Shown: positions 15,540 through 19,646, numbered from the stretch's first letter. The stretch: 64,000 bases of DNA from Verrucomicrobiota bacterium (GCA_039818205.1 JBCBUK010000002.1:224001-288000), one strand, 5' to 3'. Numbers and translations: made by a program. Notes: a model not told the origin generated them from the letters alone.

Positions 15540-18500
15540 ATGAAACATACAATCCTACTCGGCCTTGCGGCGATTGGAGCCAGTGCGACCGCCTTTGGTC
15601 ACGGCTCGATGCTCGACCCAGTTAGCCGAGTCTACGAAATCTTTTTGGAGAATCCAGAATCTCCGGATTACCCATCTTCCGAGGCTGCGATTGCCGTTAA
15701 TGGCACGCAGCCTTTCTATGACTGGAGCGAGGTAAATCGCCTCGTTCCCCAGCGAAACTACCAAGAACTCATCCCTGACGGCCAGCTTCCCGGCGCCGGA
15801 CGTGACAAGTACGCGGGATTGAACCTCCTGCGGGACGACTGGCCAGTCACCTCGATTCAGGCAGGTTCCTACGATTTCGTCTACGACGCTCACGTCCCTC
15901 ACGATCCGAGTTACTTTATCGCCTACATCACCAAGCCCGGCTATGATTCGTTGCAGCCCGTTGCTTGGGACGACCTGGAGTTGCTCGATGACAACATCGC
16001 AGCGAACTTGGTCAACGGCCAGTACCTCTTCACCTTGGATCTGCCCGAGCGTAACGGGCGACACGGCATCTATGTGATTTGGCAACGAGTCGATCCTGCT
16101 GGTGAAGCGTTTTTCTCGTGGAGTGATGTTGTTTTCGGTGACGATAATGGCAACACAACTACGCCAACGGACCCTGGCATGTCGGGTGGTCCGAGCTCCC
16201 AATACGTGGACTTCTCGGTGAGCGATAGCTGGGATGGCGGCTTTATTGGTAACGTAACCTTATATAACCCGTTTGATGCAGCGATCAATGGCTGGTCGCT
16301 CGAGTTCGACTTCAACCCGGATATCACCAATCTCTGGAGCGGTGTGATTTCCAGCCGTGGCGACAATCAATACGTTGTCGATAACGCCTCCTGGACTGGA
16401 AGTATTCCCGTTGGCGGTTCGGTGAGTTTTGGATTTCAAGCAAACGGCGATGCTGCACATGCCCACATGTCCAACTTCGTCCTAAACGGGATTGATATCA
16501 GTGACGATCACTCGCACCACGACCCGGACCCAGATCCCACACCGGACCCAGATCCCACACCGGACCCTGATCCCACGCCGGATCCCGATCCCACACCGGA
16601 CCCTGATCCCACGCCGGATCCCGATCCCACACCGGATCCTGATCCGACGCCGGATCCCGATCCTACACCGGATCCCGATCCTACACCGGACCCTGATCCA
16701 ACACCCGATCCAGGGGTGAGCGCTTTGACAGTCGATGTTATTGATGACTGGGGAAATGGATTCACCGCTAATGCAAAATTGACCAATGTCACGGATTCTG
16801 CACTCAGTGGATGGATGATCAGCTTTGACTGGGACTATCAGATTACGAACATCTGGAATGCCGAAATCGTGTCCCAGGAAGGTAACCGCTACACGGTGCA
16901 AAATGCATCCTGGAATGCGAATGTCGGCGCGGGAGCGATCGTCGAATTTGGTTTCAACGGTTCTCCGGGCAACGTTACGGTCCAGCCCACGAATATCACC
17001 CTGAATGGAACTCCGGTTAGCGGAGGTGACCCGACACCAGATCCAGACCCGACACCAGATCCAGATCCCACACCGGATCCCGATCCTACACCGGACCCTG
17101 ATCCGGGGCCCGATCCGAGCAGTGGTGACTTCCGCAAGCGGGTTGTCGGCTATTTCCCAAGCTGGGGCATCTATGGTCGCAACTACTTCCCGAAGGACAT
17201 CCCGGTGGATCAGTTAACCCACGTGATCCATTCCTTTGCCCGGATCTCCACCTCTAACGAAATCGCGATCATTGACCCGTGGGCCGATATCCAGATCTCG
17301 CTGGGTGATGGTGTTTCCAATCAGCCCTTTCAAGGCATCTTCAATGAGTACATTGAACTCAAGGAAGCCAATCCGCACTTGAAGACCTTGATTGCCGTTG
17401 GTGGCTGGTTTGACTCAGGTCGCTTCAGCCAAGTCGCTGCGAGTGCATCAGCTCGTGAGACCTTCGCTCAATCGGTTTTGGACTTCGTGCTTCAGTATCA
17501 ATTCGACGGTGTCGATCTCGACTGGGAATACCCAGTTGTTGCCACCGGTGTGAATGGAAATGTGAGCCCAGCCGATGGTGAAAACTATGTCCTGCTTGCT
17601 CGCGCAATTCGCGACAAGTTCGACGCCCAAAGCGCCATCGATGGAAAAGAGTATTTGATCAGTGCCGCGATCCCGGCGGGTTTTGATAAATACGAGGCCA
17701 TCAACATGGCTGGTTTGGCAGCCGAGCTGGACTGGATCAACGCGATGACCTACGACTACCATGGTCGCTGGGTTAGCAACCGGACTGGCCACAACGCACC
17801 GCTCTACCACAATCCGGCAAACCCGGACAATGATCGATACAACGCCGATTCCACCGTCCAGGGTATGATTTCTATGGGCGTGCCAGCTTCAAAAATCAAC
17901 CTCGGTATTCCACTCTATGGTTATACCTGGCAGGGTGTGCCTTCGGCCAGCAATGGTCTTTACCAGTCGGCCACGGGAACTGGGTTTGGAACGATCGTTG
18001 AGGAGCCTGGTATGGCTGATTATCGGACAATTGCCGCGCTCTTGGAAACGGATCCAACCAACAACCGCGAGTATTGGGACGAAGCGGCTCAGGCGAGTTA
18101 CTTCTATTCATCCACGATGAACGGTGGTTCCTTTGCAGGCTATGACAGCCCCCGTGCGGTTGAGCGTAAGATTGAGTATGTCGACGCGAATGGATTGGGC
18201 GGCGTTATGTTCTGGGAAATCTCGAATGACATTCGCGATTCAACCGATCCAAATAGCTTGATCAAGATCTCGGCCGATGCCTTCACCGAAGTGGCTGACC
18301 CCGGCTTGGGGGCCTTCAACTACGGTGAAGCGTTGCAGAAGTCTTTGTTCTTCTACGAAGTCCAGCGCTCGGGCGAACTTCCTGCGGATAATCGAGTTTC
18401 TTGGCGCGGCGATTCCGCCGTCAACGATGGCTCAGATGTCGGTGTGGACTTGAGCGGCGGTTACTATGATGCGGGAGACCACGTTAAGTTTGTCCTGCCC

Positions 18501-19646
18501 ATGTCGGCTTCGCTGACGCTGTTGGCTTGGGGCATCGACGAGTATCGAGAAGGCTATGCGGATTCGGGTCAACTGGACCAGGCGCTCGATACGATTCGCT
18601 GGGGAACTGATTGGCTGATGAAGGCCCACCCGGAGCCCAATGTATTCTACGCTCAAGTGGGTGATGGTCATGTTGACCACGCCTATTGGGGACCGCCCGA
18701 GGACATGACAATGGCCCGCCCTGCATGGAAGGTGGACGCGCAGAATCCTGGTTCCGATGTTGCGGGCGAAGCCGCGGCGGCGCTCGCAGCTGCATCGATC
18801 ATTTTCCGGGACAGCGACCCAGCCTATGCCGATCAGCTCCTGACACACGCTGAGGATCTGTTTGCCTTTGCCGATCAATATCGCGGCAAGTATTCGGACG
18901 CGATTCCCAATGTAACGTCGTTCTATAACTCCTGGTCGGGTTACAACGATGAGCTCGTCTGGGGTGCTGCCTGGCTCTACAAGGCAACGGGTGATAGCAG
19001 CTACCTGGCGAAGGCCGAGAGCTATTGGAGCTCGTTGCTCGGTGGCTTGAACCCAAGCTGGACGATCAATTGGGACGATAAGTCTTATGGCGCGGCCTTG
19101 ATCCTCGCGCAGGAAACGGGCAAGGATCAATACAAGCAACAGGTTGAAGGCTGGCTCGATAACTGGGTCAGCGGTTCGATCCAAAAGACCCCGGGTGGTT
19201 TAGCTTGGCTCGACCAGTGGGGTAGCTTGCGCTATGCCGCAAATACGGCGTTCCTTGCCTTCGTTTACGGCGATACTGTGAACGACAAGAATGGAACCTA
19301 CACGGGCTTTGCCGCGGGGCAGTTGGATTACATCCTAGGAGACAATCCGAACCAGCGCAGCTACGTCGTTGGCTTTGGCAATAACCCGCCGATCAATCCG
19401 CATCACCGTGCGGCGCATGGGTCGACGACCAATAATATCAACCTTCCAGCAAACAATCTTCATGTTCTTTATGGAGCGTTGGTGGGCGGACCAAATCAGC
19501 CTGATGACAACGCTTACGTTGATGATCGCACGGACTTCATCGCCAATGAAGTTGCGATGGATTACAATGCTGGCTTTACGGGTGCTTTGGCCCGTCAGAC
19601 TCAGGACTTGGGTGGCGATCCGCTTCCCAATTTTCCACAGGACTAA
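15540..19646 (+). CDS. Secreted multimodular enzyme: AA10 LPMO - CBM2 - CBM2 - GH18 chitinase - GH9 endoglucanase
   Basis: Signal peptide ending AFG before HGSM (His1); LPMO motifs DPVSR, PH and WQR..EAFF; two Trp-rich CBM2 modules; GH18 [11 protein letters not shown] and MTYDYHG; GH9 [16 protein letters not shown] and [10 protein letters not shown]. Confidence 0.93.
16527..16706 (+). repeat. Ten tandem 18-bp units encoding a (DPDPTP)10 linker
   Basis: Units gaycchgatccnacrccs counted directly; they differ only at synonymous positions. Confidence 0.95.
17028..17117 (+). repeat. Second DPDPTP linker array (about 5 units)
   Basis: gacccgacacca gatccagacccgacacca gatccagatcccacaccg ... Confidence 0.92.

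Follow-up and report, generated by a model that had tools for sequence, protein, structure and literature searches.

Introduction

In 2014 only two genes were known in which a lytic polysaccharide monooxygenase (LPMO) of family AA10 is joined to a glycoside hydrolase (GH) domain (PMC4144037). A review from 2023 describes some LPMOs as bicatalytic, with Jd1381 as the only one characterized (PMC10154629), and according to a paper from 2024 InterPro holds AA10 modules attached to GH5, GH9, GH18 or GH19 (PMC11705215). By that year, judging from these sources, biochemical studies apparently covered two natural LPMO-hydrolase fusions, both of them bicatalytic. A 2016 survey of 11,953 bacterial genomes yielded 217 multi-activity GHs; a cellulase was combined with a chitinase in just six of them, and the GH9 row of the multi-activity table gives no GH18 partner (PMC4928363). 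Here we analyze a gene located at positions 15540..19646 of a stretch of 64,000 nucleotides (hereafter the window) from the genome of a Verrucomicrobiota bacterium (GCA_039818205.1, JBCBUK010000002.1:224001-288000), whose predicted product combines an AA10 LPMO, a GH18 chitinase, a GH9 cellulase and two family 2 carbohydrate-binding modules (CBM2) in one secreted chain.

Three described enzymes come closest to this arrangement. Jd1381 (JdLPMO10A) from Jonesia denitrificans, with the order AA10-CBM5-GH18, likewise presents an N-terminal AA10, a CBM and a GH18 in a secreted chain, and the full-length enzyme performed better than any mix of its separate domains, indicating intramolecular synergy (PMC10154629). 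Compared by architecture and not by sequence, it differs from the window protein in having two catalytic modules, a CBM5 in place of CBM2, no cellulase and an actinobacterial origin. TcChi from Thermococcus chitonophagus (GH12-CBM2-CBM2-GH18) shares with it the association of a cellulase-family module, a GH18 and two CBM2s, and its activity on chitin as well as cellulose has been demonstrated in biochemical work (PMC13629093); however, this archaeal, thermophilic enzyme lacks an LPMO, its cellulase is an N-terminal GH12 instead of a GH9, and its host has separate chitinases and cellulases, whereas the fusion in the window contains the only GH18, GH9 and AA10 of the genome. CcLPMO10-Man5, composed of an AA10, a GH5 mannanase and two CBM3s, also couples an LPMO with a hydrolase whose polymer is not that of the LPMO, and the hydrolase facilitates access of the LPMO to its substrate in an intramolecular synergy (PMC11705215); unlike the window protein, it is bicatalytic, its polymers are mannan and cellulose and its CBMs are CBM3s. 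The presence of an AA10 and a GH in one polypeptide, common to the bicatalytic LPMO-hydrolases, is therefore found here too and is exceeded by two hydrolases of different families, so that the new element would be the attachment of one more hydrolase, directed at another polymer, to a shared CBM2 anchor.

Results and Discussion

One secreted chain with three catalytic modules

The gene is a single open reading frame (ORF) on the + strand, as are all the features given below unless marked otherwise, and extends from 15453 (TTG) or 15540 (ATG) to 19646. The ATG start is supported by the fact that the AA10 module also occupies residues 21-200 in the three closest annotated homologs, P0002 to P0004 (P0xxx designates proteins from homology searches, G000 the source genome, G0xx the genomes of relatives and L0xx fetched loci), and it yields an intact frame of 1368 amino acids (aa). 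The modules follow each other as signal peptide, AA10 LPMO, CBM2, a (DPDPTP)10 linker, CBM2, a second D/P/T linker, GH18 and GH9. The first-pass annotation, made from the DNA sequence alone, had proposed one continuous secreted ORF with exactly this composition; its reading was borne out for every domain and motif, and the Pfam matches of all the domains it had called lie far above the curated cut-offs.

The chain starts with a Sec-type signal peptide of 20 residues (15540..15599, judged by eye on the translation) that ends in AFG, and its cleavage would expose His21, the first residue of the AA10 module (15600..16139), at the position where the earlier annotation had placed His1 of the LPMO. 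The LPMO_10 profile (PF03067) matches residues 21-197 over its whole length (positions 1-183 of 183) with 127.6 bits against a cut-off of 23 (1.2e-36), and matches in the PDB range from 1e-46 to 7e-29, the nearest being CbpD (8c5n, 1.2e-46), together with Tma12 (6if7), ScLPMO10D (7zjb) and CjLPMO10A (5fjq). The histidine brace is present, with His21 aligned to residue 1 of the four solved AA10 chains and His121 to the second copper His, and both residues, along with Arg183, Glu189 and the axial Phe191, which make up the second sphere of clade II AA10s, are kept in 54 of 54 related modules.

The GH18 module (17127..18239) gave 305.7 bits with PF00704 (residues 534-897, cut-off 29.6, 6.7e-91), and its nearest structures are ChiW of Paenibacillus (5gzu, 1.3e-116, a match that spreads over two domains) and ChiA1 of Bacillus circulans (1itx, 3.3e-85). 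The catalytic DxxDxDxE motif, previously located at about 17502-17534, is intact as DGVDLDWE at 17505-17528 (residues 656-663), and MTYDYHG follows at 17745-17765 (residues 736-742). In the GH9 module (18312..19643), an endo-beta-1,4-glucanase catalytic module, PF00759 is matched over positions 1-444 of 444 at residues 928-1350 (552.2 bits, cut-off 27.7, 1.6e-165), and the two motifs that had been reported as intact, DAGD and NEVA, lie in DAGDHVKF at 18468-18491 (residues 977-984) and at 19545-19568 (residues 1336-1343). The module aligns with residues 3-453 of the 605 of Thermobifida fusca Cel9A/E4 (1js4) at 1e-177, most of the aligned substrate-cleft stretches being conserved.

The two CBM2s were recognized by Pfam (PF00553, 147.8 bits in two stretches, cut-off 24). 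The first one (16203..16505) adjoins the AA10 module and has its PDB matches in the chitinase CBM2 6bt9 (1.1e-15) and the CBM2a of Cex (1exg, 2e-15); the second (16725..17024, with the Pfam match at residues 399-491) matches 1exg at 3.5e-18 and the CBM2 of ChiC (2rtt) at 1e-11. Members of the CBM2 family bind cellulose, chitin or xylan (PMC13629093). Between both modules lies the (DPDPTP)10 linker (16527..16706), an 18-bp tandem array for which Tandem Repeats Finder (TRF) gave 10.4 copies with 87% match at 16524-16711, and the second linker, of about 32 residues, occupies 17022..17117 (TRF 17028-17104) ahead of the GH18; both were also retrieved with regular expressions. This gene is the only ORF of at least 300 aa in the genome with a DP-type linker. 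Downstream of the stop codon, a hairpin scan revealed a structure resembling an intrinsic terminator (19695-19724), with 13 pairs, eight of them G-C, followed by a T run. Since the flanking ORFs on both sides are on the opposite strand, the gene is monocistronic and stands alone with its own terminator, as had been proposed.

Distribution of the triad

The first protein search listed 120 proteins, 121 with the query, which were classed by BLAST against the modules of the window protein; the protein searches covered lengths from 752 to 2394 aa, and longer or shorter forms were seen through genome searches only. GH9 alone was the most frequent architecture (62 of 121), followed by AA10-GH9 (35), multiple GH9 (8), AA10-GH18 (6), AA10-GH18-GH9 (5: the window protein, P0002, P0003, P0004 and P0006), GH9-GH18 and GH9-AA10 (2 each) and GH18-GH9 (1). 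P0002 and P0004 come from NCBI, where they are assigned to Cerasicoccus frondis and C. maritimus, respectively, and named only as 'glycoside hydrolase family 9 protein'; in the GH18, GH9 and AA10 segments they are identical to G005 and G001. P0003, a metagenome protein from JGI, has the same module order as the window protein. The source genome itself grouped with Cerasicoccus (NCBI lineage Verrucomicrobiota, Opitutia, Puniceicoccales, Cerasicoccaceae).

A survey of the genomes of 60 relatives and the fetched loci showed the full triad in four of the five other species of the genus (G001, G002, G003 and G005; 1576-1629 aa), in the same order and in one frame, and the fifth congener, whose genome is 72% complete, has a fragment of the triad at a contig end. 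Outside the genus the modules appear in other combinations. In one sister genus (G010) the triad is rearranged as AA10-CBM2x2-GH9-CBM2-GH18, and in another (G008) AA10-CBM2x3-GH9 is followed by about 400 aa and then by GH18. G012 encodes a CBM2x3-GH18-GH9 protein and a separate AA10-CBM2x3, G047 has AA10-CBM2x3-GH9 and a separate GH18, and five genomes (G009, G013, G014, G015 and G016) contain a frame in which GH18 is accompanied by CBM2s and not by GH9. The remaining triad, P0006, is encoded in a metagenome-assembled genome (MAG) of Caldilineaceae (Chloroflexota) and is a cysteine-rich AA10-CBM2-GH18-GH9-CBM3-CBM2 protein. In a sample of 401 genomes spread evenly across the phylum, with the two best candidates per genome scored, GH18 and GH9 were found in one frame in two, namely the source genome and G012, and a GH18-centered protein search added no further triads.

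We found no description of an AA10+GH18+GH9 protein in the literature, subscription-only papers and supplements lying outside the search. To this extent the earlier statement that the architecture was not a recognized one can be kept; it does not hold for the public sequence databases, in which the architecture is present, nor for the genus, across which it is conserved. Its presence in databases, its genus-wide conservation and its rearranged versions in two sister genera and in the Chloroflexota MAG mean that it is not a one-off. On the sequences compared, the triad is a rare design, and it is neither unique nor a new category.

Other proteins retrieved in these searches are fusions devoid of an LPMO. 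P0064 and P0067 have the order GH9-CBM3-GH18, and P0158 and P0160, labelled as belonging to a Mycolicibacterium sp. MAG and an Actinomycetes bacterium, consist of GH5, GH18, CBM2 and Calx-beta, thus pairing a chitinase with a cellulase-family module of yet another family. Animal GH9s from coral, cockroach and abalone were also among the homologs of the window protein, at 46-53% identity.

Probable repeated assembly of the triad

The GH18 tree was built with 19 rows, after dropping two duplicates. The genus formed one clade (support 100/95), G008 and G010 grouped with AA10-GH18 proteins (99/99), P0006 was on a separate long branch, and P0064 and P0067 were far off. The GH9 tree included 53 of 123 modules, i.e. 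all those linked to GH18 or derived from loci, every second AA10-GH9 and every third GH9-only module. In this tree the genus and G012 formed a clade (100) that was sister (97) to 17 GH9-only proteins, several of which are labelled as cyanobacterial in NCBI, while G008 and G010 fell within an AA10-GH9 clade (100) and P0006 was placed with AA10-GH9 proteins of Caldilineaceae (96). An approximately unbiased (AU) test rejected a single clade for the 12 GH18-linked GH9 modules, a group named after the tree had been seen, with a log-likelihood difference of 471 (p 3e-72). In the AA10 tree (54 rows) all 45 verrucomicrobial modules formed one clade (support 99), with the AA10-GH18 proteins nested among those of AA10-GH9 type.

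The simplest reading of these trees would be that the AA10+GH18+GH9 triad was assembled independently at least three times, in addition to one LPMO-free GH9-GH18 fusion. A single ancient fusion followed by many losses, although not strictly excluded, is a poor fit, because the gene orders differ and the positions of the modules are discordant in both the GH18 and the GH9 trees. The verrucomicrobial AA10-CBM2-(Calx-beta)-GH9(-CBM3) proteins, which account for the 35 AA10-GH9 entries mentioned above, share with the window protein the AA10 lineage, the CBM2s, a GH9 with 58-67% identity and a low or zero cysteine content; they differ in lacking GH18 and, in many cases, in having Calx-beta and CBM3, and the GH9 of the genus does not come from their GH9 clade. 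The latter module may have been transferred between phyla, to judge from its place in the tree. According to precomputed Pfam assignments, the cyanobacterial-labelled GH9-only proteins of its sister clade carry CBM2 and Calx-beta.

Proposed mode of action

The reading we favor, to which we assign a probability of roughly 0.6, is that of a secreted chain with three catalysts that would act on chitin and cellulose from a shared CBM2 anchor. Sec export and cleavage of the signal peptide would make His21 the N-terminus of a copper-dependent AA10 LPMO, and the two CBM2a-type modules would dock the chain on the surface of crystalline beta-1,4 polymers and hold it on the particle, with the long D/P/T tethers parting the CBM2s from each other and from the hydrolases. 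The AA10 would then nick crystalline chains oxidatively, and, both within reach of the anchor, the ChiA1/ChiW-like GH18 would cut chitin and the Cel9A-type GH9 would cut beta-1,4-glucan. As AA10, GH18 and GH9 would work from the same anchor, a single gene could let the cell attack both polymers, or else particles and walls in which the two occur together. The substrate of each module, the synergy among them, export through the outer membrane and the biological role are what we infer from the sequence. A role as a single-chain degrader of chitin-cellulose composites, suggested by the first-pass annotation, is plausible, and the evidence that the triad was put together independently several times lends it further weight.

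Several observations weigh against this reading, and they concern the specificity of the AA10, the reach of the GH9, the metabolic potential of the host and the continuity of the assembly. With respect to the first, the nearest solved homologs of the AA10 are chitin-active: ScLPMO10D acts on chitin only, CbpD is a chitin-oxidizing virulence factor and CjLPMO10A is also active on chitin, with no oxidative activity demonstrated until then for Tma12 (PMC10067821). In that work, a 'hybrid' active site is described that unites the Arg/Glu second sphere of cellulose-active AA10s with a polar pair linked to chitin, Asn76/Thr131 in ScLPMO10D and Gln/Thr in others, the corresponding residues of the cellulose-active ScLPMO10C being Phe82/Trp141 (PMC10067821). 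The window AA10 resembles these four enzymes in its Arg/Glu/Phe second sphere, but where they carry Asn/Thr or Gln/Thr it has Ser63/His118, which fits neither the chitin pairs (Asn/Thr, Gln/Thr) nor the cellulose pair (Phe/Trp); it also differs from them in its lack of cysteines and in being fused to hydrolases. When these positions, read off the alignment to 7ZJB, were followed across the 54 related modules, which are kin proteins and so provide a pattern and not a statistic, Asn/Thr was found in three of the six AA10-GH18 proteins and in none of the 36 AA10-GH9 proteins, Ser/His in five of the six triads of the genus clade and in five AA10-GH9 proteins, and G008, P0006 and the Caldilineaceae proteins had a Trp as the second residue of the pair. 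With its Ser/His state, between the chitin and cellulose patterns, this enzyme could be used to ask directly if a single AA10 is able to act on both polymers, and which residues set specificity.

With respect to the GH9, it has in common with T. fusca Cel9A the catalytic domain and both catalytic motifs, but E4 runs on into a CBM3c and in the window protein nothing follows the catalytic domain: the chain terminates 18 residues past the Pfam GH9 match, where the alignment with 1js4 also stops; no CBM_3 match was obtained in the protein with Pfam. The CBM3c of E4 is needed for its processivity. Since this accompanying module is missing, the GH9 may be weak on crystalline cellulose.

As an alternative, the protein could be essentially a chitin machine in which AA10 and GH18 act on chitin, and GH9 is either directed to something other than cellulose, such as chitosan-like or mixed beta-1,4 chains, or a recent passenger. 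The chitin activity of the nearest solved AA10s, the fact that GH18 with CBM2s and without GH9 is the commoner form in the family, and the grouping of the GH9 of the genus with GH9-only and not with AA10-linked proteins, as expected of a later addition, would agree with this, and the GH12 cellulase domain of TcChi had a chitosanase side activity (PMC13629093). We nevertheless regard it as rather improbable, given the extent of the match to the catalytic domain of Cel9A, with conservation of the motifs and most of the cleft, the intact state of GH9 in all five full-length members of the genus and in G012, and the independent joining of GH9 to GH18 elsewhere.

Genome context and the question of sugar use

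The third group of adverse observations comes from the rest of the source genome, in which absence means that a gene was not found with a handful of family models. With these models no GH1, GH3, GH5 or GH94 was detected, the match for nagA reached only 20 bits, and nagB was not found, the sole Glucosamine_iso match being a 6-phosphogluconolactonase according to NCBIfam. There is only one weak GH20-like ORF (60.5 bits), which adjoins a MurQ-like gene. Among the congeners, G003, like the source genome, gave no match for GH3 or nagA, whereas five GH3 matches and one nagA-like gene were obtained in each of G001 and G005, and three GH3 matches in G002. Because genes for the use of cellobiose and of chitobiose or N-acetylglucosamine (GlcNAc) were not recognized, a simple feeding role is weakened, as far as gene content goes. 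In the surroundings of the gene, 30 ORFs between 74 and 35691 were scanned with Pfam and none corresponded to a glycan-utilization gene; they are housekeeping genes (tRNA synthetases, a purA-like gene, homoserine dehydrogenase, a transporter) or have no Pfam match.

The alternative to which these data point is a factor for breaching walls or for colonization, which would serve to attach to, or make openings in, the chitin- and/or cellulose-containing walls of eukaryotes, cysts or particles, the gain being what lies behind them and not the sugars. It would account for the retention of the gene in genomes without the recognizable catabolic functions, and for its solitary position, with no utilization locus, transporter or regulator beside it; besides, the nearest solved AA10 is that of a virulence factor, and many of the chitin-active LPMOs come from bacteria that are not chitin degraders (PMC10067821). 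On the other hand, the family models used were few, and beta-glucosidases or GlcNAc routes that they do not recognize may exist, and three of the congeners do possess GH3 genes, two of them with a nagA-like gene as well. We therefore consider this explanation unlikely, with the action of the chain on both polymers from its CBM2 anchor as the preferred one. In an extended and equally doubtful version, the triad would be a convergent, general-purpose breaker of eukaryotic walls, cysts and particles similar to faecal pellets, holding both polymers, not devoted to feeding on sugars, in which one verrucomicrobial AA10 lineage with an unusual Ser/His or His/His pair on its substrate face would oxidize chitin as well as cellulose. 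A breaker of this kind would explain why a sole AA10/GH18/GH9 enzyme is found in genomes devoid of the usual cellobiose and GlcNAc routes.

Soundness of the assembly

The source genome is 99.97% complete and consists of 66 contigs. A search for public runs containing this DNA gave a single one, which is labelled as marine metagenome and possibly corresponds to the source sample, and no RNA run; the unitigs of the former were used as read-level data. The unitigs are identical to the window wherever they match but break at 16551-16700 and 17075-17099, that is, in both repeat arrays, and the fact that no unitig bridges either of them is the last of the points that count against an intact three-catalyst chain. 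An assembly error could thus have fused segments of at least two different genes at the DPDPTP repeats, or shortened this gene by collapse. The fragmented assembly, the metagenomic label, the presence of two CBM2 copies where all the close relatives have three and an orphan contig of 759 bp, G000:C55, made only of DP-type repeats, would be consistent with such an artefact. However, the same module order recurs within a single frame in the assemblies of four other genomes and in the JGI protein, with linkers that differ in sequence, the depth of the unitigs is even on successive unique parts (40, 47, 36.8 and 36.5) and the repeats show neither alternative joints nor loose ends, and the junction between GH18 and GH9 has no repeat. 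These three facts make a wholesale chimera very unlikely and lead us to assign a marginal weight to an assembly error as the source of the architecture; the linker may have been given an incorrect length, or a third CBM2 may have been lost by collapse.

The orphan contig (G000:C55:1-759, L028) contains DP/TP/GP-type repeats only, 73% identical to window positions 16521-16693, with a DP frame that shifts along the contig, and may be an unresolved piece of the linker of this gene or of another gene. The idea that a third CBM2 could be found on a stray contig was rejected, as this one holds no CBM2 and the other CBM2s of the genome belong to a different protein, encoded on contig C4.

Absence of cysteines

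There are no cysteines among the 1368 residues of the window protein, nor in P0002 to P0004, and the Cys positions of CbpD, the CBM2a of Cex and Cel9A align with other residues. In the CBM2, the C-terminal Cys of Cex corresponds to Val, so that any disulfide through it is impossible here. Sixty-one of the 121 proteins, query included, are equally free of cysteine, versus 22 Cys in the Chloroflexota triad P0006, and the same is true for 12 of 224 crude ORFs of at least 800 aa in the source genome, where the median Cys content is 0.89%. These last counts weaken the notion of an adaptation unique to this enzyme, and the cysteine-free state looks, in the proteins compared, like a habit of the lineage for extracellular proteins. 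AA10, CBM2, GH18 and GH9 modules that do not depend on disulfides could be suited to recombinant production.

Other features of the gene and the genome

Directly after the CBM2 that adjoins the AA10 there is a His/Asp-rich stretch, DDHSHHD (16503..16523), detected with a regular expression on the protein and by comparison with orthologs, whose tails at this position consist of H, D and G in alternation. In a set of 20 chosen proteins, at least two His were present in the tail of nine of 19 AA10-proximal CBM2s, versus one of 34 distal ones. It may be a metal-binding tail, by its composition. Copper-binding CBM2s that regulate LPMOs have been reported (PMC12703677), but their MMH motif is not present in the window protein; a cluster within its first CBM2, AHAHM, was considered as an equivalent and dropped, since it is not conserved among orthologs.

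The junction between GH18 and GH9 (18240..18311) contains about ten residues of true linker, as deduced from the alignment of orthologs. Among the five rows compared it is short in the window protein and G002, and P0002 to P0004 have a D/S/G-rich insert of about 35 residues. A rigid GH18-GH9 didomain was rejected in view of this variation.

The second CBM2-containing protein of the genome (G000:C4:4095-6116, - strand, corresponding to L029:95-2116, - strand) is also secreted, with 673 aa and two CBM2s. A search of 16 relatives did not recover it, and it was discarded as a conserved partner. Neither Pfam nor a sequence search of the PDB gave a match for its C-terminal domain (about 390 aa), which belongs to a large family of 1300 representative clusters at E<=0.001 that lacks a Pfam model. 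The fold predicted for it is a (beta/alpha)8 barrel, with a predicted local distance difference test score (pLDDT) of 93 and a predicted template modelling score (pTM) of 0.93, distantly similar to GH5, PslG or GH157 (template modelling score 0.45-0.55, 9-14% identity), and in it Glu143 is invariant and Glu201 and Glu276 are nearly so. On the basis of this model, the domain is a candidate for an unclassified family of clan GH-A. In the window, two adjacent ORFs of exactly 436 aa each (29470-30780 and 31122-32432, - strand) and one of 589 aa (23000-24769, - strand) gave no Pfam match at 1e-5.

Concluding remarks

If the protein were merely two ordinary activities on one tether, it would be a useful enzyme and would entail no conceptual advance. 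The building of the same triad at least three times from different parents, as the trees suggest, argues for a real advantage of having chitinase, cellulase and LPMO co-localized, and the enzyme could help to explain how those marine Verrucomicrobiota that have very small sets of carbohydrate-active enzymes for these polymers interact with particles or organisms bearing chitin and cellulose.

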